This document shows positions 50,258 to 57,991 of a DNA stretch of 64,000 nucleotides, piece after piece. How positions within the stretch are numbered: position 1 is the first letter of the stretch; each line of letters starts with the position of its first letter. The stretch is from the NCBI RefSeq assembly GCF_001677475.2, contig NZ_CP015229.1; one strand, written 5' to 3'. A program made the position numbers and the translations under genes. The stretch is from Escherichia coli (GTDB lineage Bacteria > Pseudomonadota > Gammaproteobacteria > Enterobacterales > Enterobacteriaceae). A model generated the notes under the pieces. It did no database searches, was not told the origin of the DNA, and worked only from the letters and a program-made list of their open reading frames with translations.

Positions 50258-51418
50258 ATGACAAATAACCCTCTGATTCCACAAAGCAAACTTCCACAAC
50301 TTGGCACTACCATTTTCACCCAGATGAGCGCGCTGGCGCAGCAACACCAGGCGATTAACCTGTCGCAAGGCTTTCCTGATTTTGATGGTCCGCGCTATTT
50401 ACAGGAGCGGCTGGCGTACCACGTTGCCCAGGGGGCAAACCAATACGCGCCCATGACCGGCGTGCAGGCCTTGCGCGAGGCGATTGCTCAGAAAACGGAA
50501 CGTTTGTATGGCTATCAACCAGATGCCGATAGCGATATCACCGTAACGGCAGGGGCGACGGAAGCGTTATATGCAGCGATTACCGCATTGGTGCGCAATG
50601 GTGATGAAGTGATCTGCTTTGATCCCAGCTATGACAGTTACGCGCCCGCCATCGCGCTTTCGGGGGGAATAGTGAAACGTATTGCACTGCAACCACCGCA
50701 TTTTCGCGTGGACTGGCAGGAATTTGCCGCATTGTTAAGCGAGCGCACCCGACTGGTGATCCTCAACACCCCGCATAACCCCAGTGCAACTGTCTGGCAG
50801 CAGGCTGATTTCGCCGCTTTGTGGCAGGCAATTGCCGGGCACGAGATTTTTGTCATTAGCGATGAAGTTTACGAGCACATCAACTTTTCACAACAGGGCC
50901 ATGCCAGCGTGCTGTCGCATCCGCAGCTGCGTGAGCGGGCGGTGGCAGTTTCTTCATTTGGCAAGACTTATCATATGACCGGCTGGAAAGTGGGTTATTG
51001 CGTTGCGCCAGCGCCCATCAGTGCCGAAATTCGCAAGGTACATCAGTATCTGACCTTTTCGGTAAATACCCCGGCGCAACTGGCGCTTGCCGATATGCTA
51101 CGTGCAGAACCTGAGCATTATCTTGCGTTACCGGACTTTTATCGCCAGAAACGCGATATTCTGGTGAATGCCTTAAGTGAGAGTCGGCTGGAGATTTTAC
51201 CGTGCGAAGGTACATACTTTTTGCTGGTGGATTACAGCGCCGTGTCTACGCTGGATGACGTTGAGTTTTGCCAGTGGCTGACGCGGGAGCACGGTGTAGC
51301 GGCGATTCCGCTGTCGGTGTTTTGCGCCGATCCCTTCCCCCATAAACTGATTCGTCTCTGTTTTGCCAAGAAGGAATCGACGTTGCTGGCAGCAGCTGAA
51401 CGCCTGCGCCAGCTGTAG
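50258..51418 (+). CDS. ybdL: PLP-dependent methionine aminotransferase YbdL
   Basis: 386-aa ORF; class I aminotransferase. Confidence 0.9.
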   Translation: MTNNPLIPQSKLPQLGTTIFTQMSALAQQHQAINLSQGFPDFDGPRYLQERLAYHVAQGANQYAPMTGVQALREAIAQKTERLYGYQPDADSDITVTAGATEALYAAITALVRNGDEVICFDPSYDSYAPAIALSGGIVKRIALQPPHFRVDWQEFAALLSERTRLVILNTPHNPSATVWQQADFAALWQAIAGHEIFVISDEVYEHINFSQQGHASVLSHPQLRERAVAVSSFGKTYHMTGWKVGYCVAPAPISAEIRKVHQYLTFSVNTPAQLALADMLRAEPEHYLALPDFYRQKRDILVNALSESRLEILPCEGTYFLLVDYSAVSTLDDVEFCQWLTREHGVAAIPLSVFCADPFPHKLIRLCFAKKESTLLAAAERLRQL

Positions 51419-52048
51419 TTATTTAACCGTCCAGGCGCGGGAAAATTGACGGTCGGCAAACAGTTCTTGCAGGCCGTTAATTTGCTTCAGGCGCAGCACT
51501 TCGTCGCTGTCCATTCCCAGCTCTTTGCCGATTTTATGATCGTCCCATCCCAACTGGCTGAGTTCACGAACAATTTCGGACATGGCAGTGATTTGGTGGC
51601 GACCACGAGCGCGGTTATGACGAATAGTCGCGGCGATGCGTTGATTACGCGTACCTTCCAGACAGGTCACCGGCAAATAACCTTTTAAGCGTAATTTTAA
51701 CGATGATGAGCCTTTACCAATTTCATGGCGGTGAAAACCATCCACGATTTCCAGGGCATTTTTATCCGTATGCGTGACCACAATGGGTTGGGTAAAACCA
51801 TCTATTTCAATGGATTTTTTCAGCAGTTTTTTTTCGGGTGGTGCCACGTTGTTTGGGTTGTAATCATTAGGCATAAGTTGGCTGTTTTTAACCCACAGAA
51901 CGCAATCCACTGGCTCTTCTCGAAAGGGGCTAACCTGATGGATCGCCATGCGGATTTCATTAATCGCTTTGATGCGATCGTCTTCCGGCAAGCTGGCGAG
52001 AAATTGGGTTAAATCCTGCGTTAATCGTTGTTGCATAGTATCCCCCAT
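51419..52048 (-). CDS. ybdM: ParB/sulfiredoxin-like domain protein YbdM (IbrB-like)
   Basis: 209-aa ORF with DGFHRH motif (IVDGFHRHEIG); overlaps ybdN by 28 nt. Confidence 0.85.
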   Translation of the reverse strand: MGDTMQQRLTQDLTQFLASLPEDDRIKAINEIRMAIHQVSPFREEPVDCVLWVKNSQLMPNDYNPNNVAPPEKKLLKKSIEIDGFTQPIVVTHTDKNALEIVDGFHRHEIGKGSSSLKLRLKGYLPVTCLEGTRNQRIAATIRHNRARGRHQITAMSEIVRELSQLGWDDHKIGKELGMDSDEVLRLKQINGLQELFADRQFSRAWTVK

Positions 52049-53241
52049 TCCTGACGTTTTCCTTTTATTCGTTCGTTATAACGCTGATAGTTCTTCGCTT
52101 TGGTCGGGCTAAATGATAATGCCCGACACCAGTAATCGTTATTGAGTAAAACTTTGCATATTCGCCGCCAGGAGGGGATATCTTTCGCGCCAATGTCCCC
52201 TTGCTGGGTTTGTGGAACCTCGATGCCTTTTTTCTGATACCAGTGCAAATAAATGGCGATTTTATTGCGATAATGCTCAGCTGTTTTCTCCGGCATGCTG
52301 TTGAGTAGCAATAATGCATACTCCTGCCAGTCTAAATGTTCGGGCTTGAGGATTTTCCGATGACCATAAAAATGGTTGTCATGTCCGGCGTAAATGCCGC
52401 CACTTTTTACCCCGCTGACTCGTGCGCACATAGCAGCCCAGCGATCCGGTTCGATAACGTGATAGAGCCATAATCCTTGCCGTTGTTCCGGACCAAAAGG
52501 TTCGCAAATTCGCATATGACGCAGAGGAACGCCTGCCTGATACATTAGGTTATACAGTGGGTTGCAGAGACTTTGATGATTTGCATACCAGGTCCAGATA
52601 TCAGCCACTTTCCAGTCGTAGATGGGGTAAATGTACCAACTATGACCGCCTGGTGCGGCAGTAGTCCAGGGCTTATCATCGGCAAAACGTTGTTTATTTA
52701 AACTGGCGATGGCGACAAAACGGTTGTAGGACTCATCCGCACGGATGCCGATCATCATCGCCGCCGGACGTTTTTGCGAAAACCATTCGGCAAACTCACG
52801 CACAAATTGTTCGAAGGTCATGCCAGGCTGGTAAAAGGAGAAAAAGTCAGGATCGGTTATCGCATCTTGCGGGGGCTGACGTACCCATTCGACATCAGGT
52901 TCCCAGCACTGCCATTCGGGTTGGTATTGTGATAGGGAATTTTGCGTTGTAAGCGGGAGCGCAACCCAGTAAAACTCTTCGATGACATCGGTGTACAACT
53001 CGCGCAGAGACTGAACATAGTTAATGGTGCAAGAGAACTGAGCTTCCCAGTCGATAAATAAAACACAAATTTTTTTGCCCATTTGTCGGGCAAGTTCGGC
53101 GGTCAGATGCAGCATTAATCCGGAATCTTTACCACCCGAAAAAGAAACGCAGACGCGGGGTAGGGTGTTAAGTGTCCAGGTAATACGTTCTTTTGCAGCT
53201 TCCAGAATATTCAGTGGAAGCGGGATTTTATAAATAGACAT
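52021..53241 (-). CDS. ybdN: PAPS reductase-like PP-loop ATPase family protein YbdN (IbrA-like)
   Basis: 406-aa ORF with PP-loop motif SFSGGKDSG near N-terminus. Confidence 0.85.
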   Translation of the reverse strand: MSIYKIPLPLNILEAAKERITWTLNTLPRVCVSFSGGKDSGLMLHLTAELARQMGKKICVLFIDWEAQFSCTINYVQSLRELYTDVIEEFYWVALPLTTQNSLSQYQPEWQCWEPDVEWVRQPPQDAITDPDFFSFYQPGMTFEQFVREFAEWFSQKRPAAMMIGIRADESYNRFVAIASLNKQRFADDKPWTTAAPGGHSWYIYPIYDWKVADIWTWYANHQSLCNPLYNLMYQAGVPLRHMRICEPFGPEQRQGLWLYHVIEPDRWAAMCARVSGVKSGGIYAGHDNHFYGHRKILKPEHLDWQEYALLLLNSMPEKTAEHYRNKIAIYLHWYQKKGIEVPQTQQGDIGAKDIPSWRRICKVLLNNDYWCRALSFSPTKAKNYQRYNERIKGKRQEWGILCNND

Positions 53242-53387
53242 CTGAAAACGCTCTCTGAACGTTACGGGGTGATCAGTGAGATAAGACTGTTAATTATAAA
53301 GTAAACACTGTAAAGCAGAGTGTTTTATTTTTCATTCGCGCCGTGAATAAATAGATGAAAGTTATAGTAGCTGTCTGAAGTTATATA

Positions 53388-54290
53388 TCAAAAACTCTCA
53401 TTTAGGCGGTCAATAAATCGGGAGAACACCAGGTTATTTAAAGAAGATTTATTATAGGAAATGTAAAGCTTTATTGAAGGTAACGGATGCTCTAGTTTTA
53501 TCTCTTTTAAATTAAGAAAGTCACGGTGGGAGTTATAAAGTTCATAGGGAACTATTCCCAGTAAATCTGTAACTGCAATGCTATTAATGATTGTCAGCAA
53601 AGAGGAACCACGAAATGAAATTTTGCGATTCATAAACTTCTCATCTATTTCCATTTGAATATCATCAACCCCTGCTGATTTGGATATTAATTGGGTGAAC
53701 TCTTCTGCCATAATTTGCTCATAAGTGCTATTGTCAGTAATTCGCGGATGCTTATTACTACAAATTAGAGTATTGCGAATTGTATGCAATGGCATGCAAA
53801 TAACGGAACGGCTGATTACTGGCATTTGGGTGATCACCAGATCGGCTTTGCGGTGAACCAACAGTTCTTCAGCATTCTCTGCTGACATGAGGATATCATG
53901 GCACTCAATCTCGACAGAGGCATCTTGTCGTAGGCAGCGGATCAGCATACTATTATTAGAGCAAGAAATGAGCTGAGGGCCGTAGATAATAAAATTTTTC
54001 TTTAGTTCGGACTTATTGACTATATTAATTGTTTGTTCAAGGTCTCTGAGATTTTTCTCAAGATGGTGATGCAGATTTAACCCTGTCGTCGTCGGCGCGA
54101 TACCTTTTCCTGAGCGAATGAATAAAGGGTCATTAAATTGCGCACGTAAGCGTTGTAACGACTGGCTCACGGCTGATGGGGTGATATATAGTGATTCAGC
54201 AGCCTTGCTAATGCTTAAATGCTGATAAATACACTCAAATATGACAAGAAGATTTAAGTCGAACTTTTTCAAGTCGTAGAGATTGGCCAT
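53388..54290 (-). CDS. ybdO: LysR-family transcriptional regulator YbdO
   Basis: 300-aa ORF with N-terminal HTH (ISKAAESLYITPSAVSQSLQRLR). Confidence 0.85.
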   Translation of the reverse strand: MANLYDLKKFDLNLLVIFECIYQHLSISKAAESLYITPSAVSQSLQRLRAQFNDPLFIRSGKGIAPTTTGLNLHHHLEKNLRDLEQTINIVNKSELKKNFIIYGPQLISCSNNSMLIRCLRQDASVEIECHDILMSAENAEELLVHRKADLVITQMPVISRSVICMPLHTIRNTLICSNKHPRITDNSTYEQIMAEEFTQLISKSAGVDDIQMEIDEKFMNRKISFRGSSLLTIINSIAVTDLLGIVPYELYNSHRDFLNLKEIKLEHPLPSIKLYISYNKSSLNNLVFSRFIDRLNESF

Positions 54291-54499
54291 ACACTACTCC
54301 GGTTATATTTTTCTTCCATGGTATATTCACTTAATCAATGTTTTTTTGCGTATATATTTTTATTGATTATATTTTTTTGCTTAACTCAGGATTAAGTTTT
54401 TCTAAAATAGCACAGCCACTTAGGGCAGAGCGAGCAATTCATGCTTTTTTAGGATGGTTGAAAAGCAGGGATGTATTTCAACCATCCATGAATTATCTT

Positions 54500-55617: not shown

Positions 55618-56181
55618 ATGTCCTTGATTAACACCAAAATTAAACCTTTTAAAAACCAGGCATTCAAAAACGGCGAATTCATCGAAATCACCGAAAAAGA
55701 TACCGAAGGCCGCTGGAGCGTCTTCTTCTTCTACCCGGCTGACTTTACTTTCGTATGCCCGACCGAACTGGGTGACGTTGCTGACCACTACGAAGAACTG
55801 CAGAAACTGGGCGTAGACGTATACGCAGTATCTACCGATACTCACTTCACCCACAAAGCATGGCACAGCAGCTCTGAAACCATCGCTAAAATCAAATATG
55901 CGATGATCGGCGACCCGACTGGCGCCCTGACCCGTAACTTCGACAACATGCGTGAAGATGAAGGTCTGGCTGACCGTGCGACCTTCGTTGTTGACCCGCA
56001 GGGTATCATCCAGGCAATCGAAGTTACCGCTGAAGGCATTGGCCGTGACGCGTCTGACCTGCTGCGTAAAATCAAAGCAGCACAGTACGTAGCTTCTCAC
56101 CCAGGTGAAGTTTGCCCGGCTAAATGGAAAGAAGGTGAAGCAACTCTGGCTCCGTCTCTGGACCTGGTTGGTAAAATCTAA
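55618..56181 (+). CDS. ahpC: Alkyl hydroperoxide reductase peroxiredoxin subunit AhpC
   Basis: 187-aa [26 protein letters not shown]...; peroxidatic Cys motif FTFVCPTE. Confidence 0.97.
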
Positions 56182-56425
56182 ATTTCCTTCGTCTTTCACG
56201 CCATAGCGGCGTTGGCGTCGCCCGCTCACCCCGGTCACTTACTTGTGTAAGCTTCCGGGGATTCACAGGCTAGCCGCCTTGCTCTGGCGTGAAATACTTC
56301 GGAAATTCACCTAATTCTTCGGGTGCTGCGGCACCCGATTTTCTTCCCCGCATCATGATGCAAGCTGCATCCAGGTAGCCGCAGAGGCCGCTTGCATGAT
56401 GATGTTTAAAGCCCAGGAGATAAAC

Positions 56426-57991
56426 ATGCTCGACACAAATATGAAAACTCAACTCAAGGCTTACCTTGAGAAATTGACCAAGCCTGTTGAGTTAATTGCC
56501 ACGCTGGATGACAGCGCTAAATCGGCAGAAATCAAGGAACTGTTGGCTGAAATCGCAGAACTGTCAGACAAAGTCACCTTTAAAGAAGATAACAGCTTGC
56601 CGGTGCGTAAGCCGTCTTTCCTGATCACCAACCCAGGTTCCAACCAGGGGCCACGTTTTGCAGGCTCCCCGCTGGGCCACGAGTTCACCTCGCTAGTACT
56701 GGCGTTGCTGTGGACCGGTGGTCATCCGTCGAAAGAAGCGCAGTCTCTGCTGGAGCAGATTCGCCATATTGACGGTGATTTTGAATTCGAAACCTATTAC
56801 TCGCTCTCTTGCCACAACTGCCCGGACGTGGTGCAGGCGCTGAACCTGATGAGCGTACTGAACCCGCGCATCAAGCACACTGCAATTGACGGCGGCACCT
56901 TCCAGAACGAAATCACTGATCGCAACGTGATGGGCGTTCCGGCAGTGTTCGTAAACGGGAAAGAGTTTGGTCAGGGCCGCATGACGTTGACTGAAATCGT
57001 TGCCAAAATTGATACTGGCGCGGAAAAACGTGCGGCAGAAGAGCTGAACAAGCGTGATGCTTATGACGTATTAATCGTTGGTTCCGGCCCGGCGGGTGCA
57101 GCGGCAGCGATTTACTCCGCACGTAAAGGCATCCGTACCGGCCTGATGGGCGAACGTTTCGGTGGTCAGATCCTCGATACCGTTGATATCGAAAACTACA
57201 TTTCTGTACCGAAGACCGAAGGGCAGAAACTGGCAGGTGCGCTGAAAGTTCACGTTGATGAATACGACGTTGATGTGATCGACAGCCAGAGCGCCAGCAA
57301 ACTGATCCCGGCAGCGGTTGAAGGTGGTCTGCATCAGATTGAAACAGCTTCTGGCGCGGTACTGAAAGCACGCAGCATTGTCGTGGCGACCGGTGCAAAA
57401 TGGCGCAACATGAACGTTCCGGGCGAAGATCAGTATCGCACCAAAGGCGTGACCTACTGCCCGCACTGCGACGGCCCGCTGTTTAAAGGCAAACGCGTAG
57501 CGGTTATCGGCGGCGGTAACTCCGGCGTGGAAGCAGCAATCGACCTGGCGGGTATCGTTGAGCACGTAACTCTGCTGGAATTTGCGCCAGAAATGAAAGC
57601 CGACCAGGTTCTGCAGGACAAACTGCGCAGCCTGAAAAACGTCGACATTATTCTGAATGCGCAAACCACGGAAGTGAAAGGCGACGGCAGCAAAGTCGTT
57701 GGTCTGGAATATCGAGATCGTGTCAGCGGCGATATTCACAACATCGAACTGGCCGGTATTTTCGTCCAGATTGGTCTGCTGCCGAACACCAACTGGCTGG
57801 AAGGCGCAGTCGAACGTAACCGCATGGGCGAGATTATCATTGATGCGAAATGCGAAACCAACGTCAAAGGCGTGTTCGCAGCGGGTGACTGTACAACGGT
57901 TCCGTACAAGCAGATCATCATCGCCACTGGCGAAGGTGCCAAAGCCTCTCTGAGTGCTTTTGACTACCTGATTCGCACCAAAACAGCATAA
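56426..57991 (+). CDS. ahpF: Alkyl hydroperoxide reductase flavoprotein subunit AhpF
   Basis: ATG at 56426 ([17 protein letters not shown]); 521 aa; CHNC and CPHC redox motifs. Confidence 0.97.

Follow-up and report, generated by a model that had tools for sequence, protein, structure and literature searches.

The ybdN-ybdM pair of Escherichia coli is a core chromosomal copy of the IbrA/IbrB module, predicted to join a PP-loop enzyme to a ParB-like protein

What does the ybdN-ybdM gene pair of Escherichia coli encode, and could its products act on nucleic acid? The pair (ybdNM hereafter) and its neighbour ybdO, also named citR, lie in a 64,000-nt stretch of contig NZ_CP015229.1 (assembly GCF_001677475.2), which is the window analysed here. 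An earlier sequence-only reading had placed the three open reading frames (ORFs) on the minus strand, as the ORF list confirms (Table 1), and had likened the pair both to DndC/DndB and to IbrA/IbrB, suggesting a role in nucleic-acid modification or sensing. The genes, their domains and their kinship with IbrAB are already known and annotated. The further statement that no biochemical function is established holds as well: YbdM was called 'completely uncharacterized' in 2022 (PMC8764527), and our literature search found no functional study of ybdNM. The present analysis indicates that Enterobacteriaceae have inherited ybdNM vertically, as their own version of the IbrA/IbrB module of phages, prophages, genomic islands and virulence plasmids, and we consider the nucleic-acid-directed hypothesis plausible, with contextual support.

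YbdN matches the Pfam family PAPS_reduct (phosphoadenosine phosphosulfate (PAPS) reductase; 1.2e-13), followed by DUF3440 (5e-23), and carries the SGGxDS motif on an adenine-nucleotide alpha-hydrolase fold that defines the PP-loop superfamily. The translation, Pfam and the invariant residues all uphold the assignment of its SGGKDS loop to the PAPS-reductase superfamily. When a YbdN family profile was compared with solved sequences, FAD synthase was closest (2.7e-10), ahead of CysD (2.7e-9) and CysH (2.5e-7). Alignments show that FAD synthase and CysD, both of which transfer adenylyl groups, have a canonical P-loop, whereas the P-loop of CysH is degenerate; the YbdN loop is of the canonical ATP type, unlike that of CysH. 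The catalytic domain also carries GIRADESxNR (residues 165-174) and PIYDWxxxD (206-214), and eighteen residues (R19, S35, G37, K38, D39, S40, D64, E66, R167, E170, S171, R174, P206, D209, D214, Y230, R244 and Y284) are invariant in an alignment of 88 homologues that spans E. coli to actinophages, with G36 invariant in two smaller alignments. On this evidence, YbdN is predicted to be a PP-loop enzyme with an intact catalytic apparatus, from that branch of the PAPS-reductase/CysD/FAD-synthase fold which transfers adenylyl groups. A Trp-rich insert (W110, W113, W119) and the DUF3440 tail are peculiar to the YbdN family; the C-terminal 170 residues (237-406) are all-helical and basic (isoelectric point 9.4), and phrog_2302 matches the protein over its full length (260 bits). 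No Cys is invariant across alignments of 54 or 88 YbdN homologues. Among the 88, five Cys-rich columns swap Cys and Ala independently, in a mosaic rather than an all-or-none fashion, and a family-wide metal site formed by C112, C246, C362 and C372 was rejected on this pattern; a clade-specific metal site in enterobacterial YbdN may still be conceivable.

The N-domain of the partner, YbdM, contains the motifs NDYNPN, DGFHR and RHNRARG. In its family, which comprises 1934 clusters at 50% identity, N64, N66, L76, S79, D103, G104, R107, P126, N145 and G149 are invariant, and DGxHR is found in nearly all representatives. ParB_N is the only Pfam match of YbdM, and KorB is its top structural match, with VirB matched too; together with the translation, these matches bear out the ParB/sulfiredoxin-like domain proposed earlier from DGFHR. 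In a hidden Markov model alignment to ParB/Noc, DGFHR sits opposite the GERR of ParB box II, of which the G-x-x-R is kept as G104 and R107. YbdM is accordingly classed here as a predicted DNA-binding protein of the ParB/KorB type, with a ParB/sulfiredoxin N-domain followed by a helix-turn-helix (HTH). It shares this layout with KorB, VirB and Noc, CTP-dependent regulators of the ParB family that bind DNA, yet differs from them in carrying DGFHR for GERR and in always having an enzyme partner, and it differs from ParB in stopping after the HTH, without the C-terminal dimerisation domain. The phage family phrog_2159 matches YbdM over its full length (233 bits), and ParB-N domains of the YbdM type are also fused to phage DNA methyltransferases (phrog_498, PADLOC MTase_II).

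In sulfiredoxin, the catalytic Cys lies in a GCHR motif. YbdM has Phe105 at this position, and its family has F, Y, E or A there, with one DGCHR among ~80 representatives. A sulfiredoxin-AhpC link to the neighbouring peroxiredoxin was rejected, because there is no sulfiredoxin cysteine and the mobile paralogues lack such linkage. A number of YbdM homologues are listed as insertion-bearing or duplicated (IbrB-like P0138, P0140; P0219, P0223, P0249; P0121, P0152, P0155): in some IbrB-like proteins, an intein-like insertion falls precisely at the junction of the conserved DG[FY] and TQPIV, in others a Cys-rich insertion directly follows TQP[VC]V, and further ones repeat the complete IbrB unit in tandem within a single polypeptide, which hints at a dimeric working unit. 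As for fusions that might give a clue to function, neither the C-terminal extension of long IbrB-like proteins (P0128) nor the N-terminal part of an 872-aa ORF (L101) matched anything in Pfam or PHROG. An HNH 'fusion' (L149) was discounted as probably an ORF-calling artefact.

IbrA and IbrB are immunoglobulin-binding regulators of E. coli ECOR-9. Like them, YbdN and YbdM comprise an enzyme of ~405 aa with PAPS_reduct and DUF3440 and a ParB-N/HTH protein of ~210 aa, encoded by overlapping genes on the same strand; the domain layout, DGxHR and RHNRARG together with the HTH, gene adjacency and sequence similarity all agree, the likeness being judged against proteins so named by their sources and not against the ECOR-9 sequences. 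YbdN is 57-60% identical to paralogues from E. coli, Salmonella, Yersinia and Edwardsiella (~58% for the E. coli island copies). A Trabulsiella protein with 74% identity is named 'IbrA family prophage gene co-activator', an Edwardsiella protein with 58% identity carries a 'Co-activator' name at source, and IbrA/IbrB of Streptococcus thermophilus phage show 36% identity; RefSeq names YbdM 'IbrB-like domain-containing protein'. Judged by sequence, the kinship between ybdNM and IbrA/IbrB is solid, in line with the resemblance first noted. The two nevertheless differ in setting, ybdNM being a core pair, syntenic between ahpCF and ybdL and provided with its own LysR repressor, whereas ibrAB is accessory and found in islands, prophages and plasmids. 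They also differ in overlap, which is 28 nt in ybdNM versus 16 nt in ibrAB. The 3' end of ybdN reads ...EWGILCNND-TAA, and the annotated ybdM ATG lies within the EWG codons, giving the 28-nt overlap; an alternative ATG 12 nt downstream would leave 16 nt. Of the two, it is the upstream ATG that corresponds by homology to the start of ibrB, where ibrB paralogues have an AAGGAGG Shine-Dalgarno sequence. Escherichia, Citrobacter and Enterobacter share the 28-nt overlap, S. arizonae has one of 40 nt, and the retention of an overlap in orthologues and paralogues confirms the translational coupling described earlier.

The chromosomal copy is present in 5420 of 5426 complete E. coli genomes, and the order ahpF-ahpC-(dsbG)-(ybdO)-ybdN-ybdM-ybdL is kept in >60 Enterobacteriaceae species, as found by a contig scan with one protein query that returned only Enterobacteriaceae orthologues. 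Across this family, identity is 72-86% for YbdN, 62-81% for YbdM and 50-60% for YbdO, which is sometimes absent. Both ybdN and ybdM are under strong purifying selection, with ratios of nonsynonymous to synonymous substitution rates (dN/dS) of 0.04-0.09, similar to ybdL. Because it is core and syntenic, ybdNM is not a defence-island gene, and the association with defence islands that had been raised for the pair was negative for the chromosomal copy. GC content is 37-39% in ybdO, 46-50% in ybdNM and 53-59% in the flanks. A second lineage with a core chromosomal copy would apparently be Listeria, as lmo1309-lmo1310 of L. monocytogenes, a ParB + DUF3440 pair, is among listed core-gene loci (PMC7020466); the toxin-antitoxin reading of such pairs (TASmania, PMC7020466) was set aside as guilt by association only.

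ybdNM is 95-99% identical in almost all genomes, unlike the divergent citR beside it, whose alleles compare with that of the window at 95-99% identity in 3557 records, 80-90% in 173 and 60-80% in 1616. Measured against the E. coli representative, the window has a synonymous divergence (dS) of 2.7 in ybdO, 0.6-0.7 in ybdNM and 0.09 in ahpC. It has been proposed that ybdO, being bound by H-NS, diversifies fast (PMC4720273), and the citR allele classes fit this proposal.

Outside the core chromosome, homologues of YbdN and YbdM occur in 224 phage records (Flavobacterium, Mycobacterium, Streptococcus, Arthrobacter, Bacillus and others) and 855 plasmid records (Klebsiella, E. coli, Ralstonia, Shigella). 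Plasmid cassettes adjoin iro or iuc siderophore operons, hok genes and insertion sequence elements, and an E. coli island copy near purHD adjoins an AIDA-type autotransporter and a PapB/FaeA fimbrial operon. In phages, the pair lies directly ahead of the terminase gene, sometimes in the order ParB-enzyme-ParB-methyltransferase, ahead of the portal gene, after the lysin gene in phages of lactic acid bacteria, or between RecE/RecT and a methyltransferase; a lambdoid prophage has it in its nin region, encoded on the opposite strand and next to HNH, RusA and Q. The last arrangement, with the pair on the opposite strand beside the prophage's own Q, led us to reject a phage late-gene activator (Q/RinA position) as a general rule. 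Of the 80 viral loci retrieved via YbdN, 73 have an adjacent YbdM-family gene on the same strand, in either order, and of the 79 retrieved via YbdM, 78 have YbdN, adjacent in 77; pairing in viruses is essentially obligate. A gene of ~400 aa for an SNF2-related, helicase-like protein (phrog_62; Pfam SNF2-rel 1.8e-7) occurs in 20/80 viral loci, in 15/80 directly upstream of the pair, and some of the phages may use its product as a third component. No conserved nuclease or effector partner was found in the viral loci.

Published data connect the chromosomal pair with its LysR-type neighbour, an identification confirmed by the family match in Table 1. CitR (YbdO) binds upstream of citR, and citR deletion raises ybdN by log2 5.5 and ybdM by log2 2.5, showing that CitR represses ybdNM (PMC9068703); ybdO is itself repressed by H-NS (PMC4720273). 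The citR mutant expresses ybdNM, the whole cys regulon (cysDNC, cysJI, cysAWU) and the flagellar regulon at raised levels, and lrhA at a lowered one (PMC9068703). CitR has only two sites by exonuclease-trimmed chromatin immunoprecipitation (ChIP-exo), yet 86 genes change upon citR deletion (PMC9068703), which suggests that YbdNM could be the mediator, i.e., that this pleiotropy could run through de-repressed YbdNM; further published ybdO phenotypes are similarly pleiotropic. In MG1655 carrying plasmid pUUH239.2, YbdM protein is 29-fold higher, an effect linked to blaCTX-M-15, and over-expression of YbdM costs 10% in growth rate (PMC8764527).

Within the window, a LysR-type dyad, ATTCA-N5-TGAAT (T-N11-A), occurs with one mismatch each at 53334-53348, ~95 nt upstream of ybdN, and at 54325-54339, ~35-50 nt upstream of the citR start, so that the two bracket citR; at the ybdN-proximal position, the dyad of the E. 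coli representative is perfect (ATTCA-TTATG-TGAAT). The window contains 7 such dyads, versus 2.4 expected, and the two that bracket citR are candidate CitR operators. A promoter-like site lies by ybdN at 53391..53364 (-), in a promoter scan that was not above chance. In the ybdO-ybdN spacer, a perfect inverted repeat, AAACACT-N9-AGTGTTT (7 bp), at 53303-53325 may be a weak ybdO terminator or chance; neither the E. coli representative nor other genera retain it. Across genera, the regions upstream of ybdN are AT-rich and divergent, and contain no conserved operator or parS-like repeat.

How might such a pair work? With rather less than even confidence, we favour a mechanism in which the ParB-like, DNA-targeted YbdM recruits the ATP-dependent, adenylylating YbdN onto nucleic acid, the result being that silenced genes are switched on. 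This mechanism starts from folds, motifs, obligate pairing, selection and repression that are shown here or in the literature. The overlapping genes would co-produce YbdN and YbdM, which would act as one complex; the HTH would place YbdM on DNA, and YbdM would pick the site. By analogy with CysN-CysD and DpdB-DpdA, YbdM may gate the reaction by nucleotide binding or hydrolysis. YbdN, as a member of a branch that moves AMP from ATP onto a substrate oxygen, would then adenylylate a nucleic-acid group, with DNA the most likely target, and thereby activate that group for substitution. The read-out would be altered expression (de-silencing) of horizontally acquired genes, and in the chromosome CitR and H-NS normally keep the operon silent. 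The steps that we infer are the formation of a complex, the transfer of an adenylyl group, the choice of DNA as substrate and the link to transcription.

Two known arrangements resemble this scheme in part. CysD and FAD synthase are the adenylyl-transferring members nearest to the catalytic domain of YbdN, and the activity of CysD is gated by a partner NTPase, CysN; however, CysN is a translational-type GTPase, whereas YbdM is a ParB/sulfiredoxin protein with an HTH. In the second, DpdB aids DpdA in 7-deazaguanine DNA modification (PMC12839542). DpdA/DpdB and the ParB-methyltransferase fusions likewise tie a ParB-like NTPase domain to a DNA-modifying enzyme, often with SNF2-type helicases near, yet their catalytic partner is a transglycosylase or methyltransferase, and that in ybdNM is of the PP-loop adenylyltransferase type.

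Several points weigh against the proposed recruitment of YbdN to DNA. No E. coli DNA modification attributable to ybdNM is known. The case for DNA binding by the DUF3440 region would consist solely of its charge and weak Pfam hints. In an alignment of our own, as distinct from tool output, YbdM has a His at the position of the catalytic Glu of ParB box III, which makes hydrolysis of nucleoside triphosphates by YbdM uncertain. The chromosomal pair is core, silenced and outside any defence or mobile context, which fits a regulator as well as a modifier. Methyltransferase genes neighbour the phage copies, but phages carry many such genes anyway. The de-silencing read-out is taken over from IbrAB, which bear the co-activator name in databases and reportedly co-activate prophage (eib) gene expression (Sandt et al. 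2002). The wider claim, that IbrA/IbrB-type pairs including ybdNM are undescribed ATP-dependent nucleic-acid modification machines in which a ParB-like switch targets a PP-loop adenylyltransferase to DNA, is possible but rather doubtful. If true, the machine would be spread through phages and plasmids, and Enterobacteriaceae (apparently Listeria too) would have domesticated it as a core operon kept silent. The mark it leaves would either turn on foreign genes that are silenced or shield mobile DNA, and the DUF3440 clade of 'viral cysH' genes would be unconnected with sulfur metabolism.

Among the alternatives, the one that survives best, although we still judge it unlikely, is a pure transcription switch, in which YbdM/IbrB would be a VirB/KorB-like, nucleotide-dependent DNA clamp that counter-silences H-NS on foreign DNA, YbdN/IbrA would be an obligatory cofactor, e.g., a loader or a maker or consumer of the nucleotide ligand, and DNA would not be covalently modified. 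The KorB and VirB matches of YbdM, the co-activator names given to IbrAB in databases, the paralogues in AT-rich adhesin, fimbria and siderophore islands, the AT-rich, H-NS/CitR-controlled ybdNM locus and the pleiotropic citR-deletion transcriptome all fit such a switch. However, the module is frequent among strictly lytic phages and within DNA-metabolism modules, settings in which prophage co-activation would make no obvious sense; the catalytic apparatus of YbdN is conserved in full, implying that it does chemistry on some substrate, and the absence of a conserved operator upstream of ybdN across genera also speaks against it.

Quite unlikely, in our view, is a role in conflict between mobile elements and host, whether as anti-restriction or anti-defence DNA marking or as defence, with ybdNM as a domesticated or relic copy. 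The dedicated phage families phrog_2302 and phrog_2159, the abundance of phage and plasmid records, moron-like positions (behind the lysin gene, or in the nin region on the opposite strand), SNF2 helicase and methyltransferase neighbours and the inteins in IbrB-like genes speak for such a system. However, PADLOC-DB v2 returned no significant component match to any defence system, and the partial matches are weak and at superfamily level (E-values of 1.9e-5 for DndC, 1.2e-4 for BrxP and 8.4e-4 for MTase_II); no nuclease or effector partner is conserved, and the core, syntenic chromosomal copy under purifying selection is not a relic. An activity on RNA, in which YbdN would modify an RNA base in the manner of TilS, TtuA or ThiI with YbdM as an accessory, is more doubtful still: the nearest relatives of YbdN form the PAPS-reductase branch rather than the tRNA enzymes, its partner is a ParB/HTH protein predicted to bind DNA, and it has no iron-sulfur (Fe-S) cysteines for thiolation.

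A Dnd-like phosphorothioation system, with YbdN as DndC and YbdM as DndB, is largely refuted and, to our mind, extremely improbable. The resemblance to DndC/DndB held at superfamily level, as both pairs set a PP-loop enzyme of the PAPS-reductase superfamily beside a ParB-superfamily protein with a DGxHR-type motif, but it failed at family level. Against the DndC model TIGR03183, YbdN scores 22.3 bits for a cut-off of 290.4, over residues 145-223 only (21.9 bits with the PADLOC DndC model), and it is no nearer to DndC than to CysH, CysD or FAD synthase. YbdM has no match to DndB/DGQHR models in Pfam, NCBIfam or PADLOC; its only NCBIfam matches are Noc and ParB, both under cut-off (15.8 bits for ParB TIGR00180, cut-off 58.45), and its only PADLOC match is the ParB-fused MTase_II model. 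Indeed, no curated NCBIfam model reached its cut-off for either protein, and the DGxHR motif is common to the whole ParB/sulfiredoxin superfamily rather than specific to DndB. DndC requires [4Fe-4S] cysteines, of which Cys280 is essential (PMC11662687), and the YbdN family conserves no such cysteines in either alignment; because the DndC and DndB models fail and Fe-S cysteines are not conserved, the Dnd likeness is one of superfamily only. Moreover, no dndA/iscS cysteine desulfurase, dndD, dndE or dndFGH gene stands beside ybdNM in the 60+ species, and no dnd gene or restriction partner recurs in the viral IbrAB-type loci. A CysH-like PAPS reductase of sulfate assimilation, the function behind the label of 'viral cysH auxiliary metabolic gene', is suggested by RefSeq and phage annotations as phosphoadenosine phosphosulfate reductase and by the rise of the cys regulon in the citR mutant (PMC9068703), but its probability is next to negligible, given CysH scores of 35.5, 34.3 and 25.1 bits for cut-offs of 254, 154 and 165, CysD NCBIfam scores likewise far under cut-offs, an alignment that stops ahead of the C-terminal catalytic Cys motif of CysH, no invariant Cys, a canonical ATP-type P-loop and an obligate ParB/HTH partner that would be senseless for sulfite production.

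What the analysis adds to existing annotation is the tested rejection of DndC, DndB, CysH and sulfiredoxin membership, the absence of conserved cysteines, the core, syntenic status of ybdNM in Enterobacteriaceae, the quantified obligate pairing in viruses and the recurrent SNF2-like third gene. The pair consists of E. coli core genes without an assigned function whose relatives abound in the genomes of phages and plasmids. 'Viral cysH' genes are widely counted as auxiliary metabolic genes (bioRxiv 10.1101/2021.01.05.425418), and it is very unlikely that their DUF3440 clade is a sulfonucleotide reductase. Should YbdN prove to be a DNA-directed enzyme, it would represent new chemistry for DNA or epigenetic modification, could explain the pleiotropy of ybdO/citR mutants (flagella, capsule, oxidative stress, virulence) through de-repression of ybdNM, and would correct the routine sulfate-assimilation 'cysH' label in virome studies; were the two proteins a regulator pair only, they would still exemplify a ParB-family switch that needs an enzyme partner.

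Table 1. Features of the ybdO-ybdN-ybdM locus in the window, with examples of the SNF2-like gene of viral loci (positions there are those of the locus named)
Feature	Position	Strand	Basis or remark
ybdM coding sequence (IbrB family, ParB/sulfiredoxin N-domain + predicted HTH), 209 aa	51419..52048	-	ORF list
ybdN coding sequence (IbrA family, predicted PP-loop ATP pyrophosphatase/adenylyltransferase-type), 406 aa	52021..53241	-	
ybdO = citR, LysR-type repressor of ybdNM	53388..54290	-	NF047710, 465 bits
PP-loop motif SGGKDS, YbdN residues 35-40	53122..53139	-	Translation and homologue alignments
PAPS-reductase-fold catalytic domain, YbdN residues 30-234	52540..53154	-	Pfam, invariant residues, alignments
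DUF3440 region, YbdN residues 237-383	52093..52533	-	Pfam; phrog_15645, 290 bits; secondary structure
ParB/sulfiredoxin-type nucleotide-binding domain (predicted), YbdM ~46-150	51599..51913	-	Alignment invariants, HMM alignment to ParB/Noc
DGFHR motif, YbdM residues 103-107	51728..51742	-	Translation
C-terminal helix-turn-helix region (predicted), YbdM ~151-196	51461..51598	-	
ybdN/ybdM overlap, 28 nt, translational coupling	52021..52048	-	Conserved in orthologues and paralogues
ybdO-ybdN intergenic region, AT-rich	53242..53387	-	Promoter-like site and candidate LysR-type dyad
SNF2-like gene, examples	L116:4778-5989, L089:3800-4951, L009:3833-4999		Viral loci L079-L158

Lastly, the window itself looks mosaic when 50258-53241 is compared with 55618-57991. 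Its ahpCF reaches at most 99.1% identity to any complete E. coli genome, and its ybdNM is 99.8% identical to that of one strain and ~96% to that of most. At species level, Escherichia sp. MOD1-EC7003 (98%) and E. whittamii (97%) come closest, and the window probably stems from an atypical Escherichia lineage or a recombined locus. Two short contigs (L010 and L071) in metagenome-assembled genomes labelled 'uncultured Bacteroides sp.' and 'Lachnospiraceae bacterium' encode YbdN proteins 100% and 99% identical, and YbdO proteins 97% and 99% identical, to those of the window, and are almost certainly Escherichia binning contamination.

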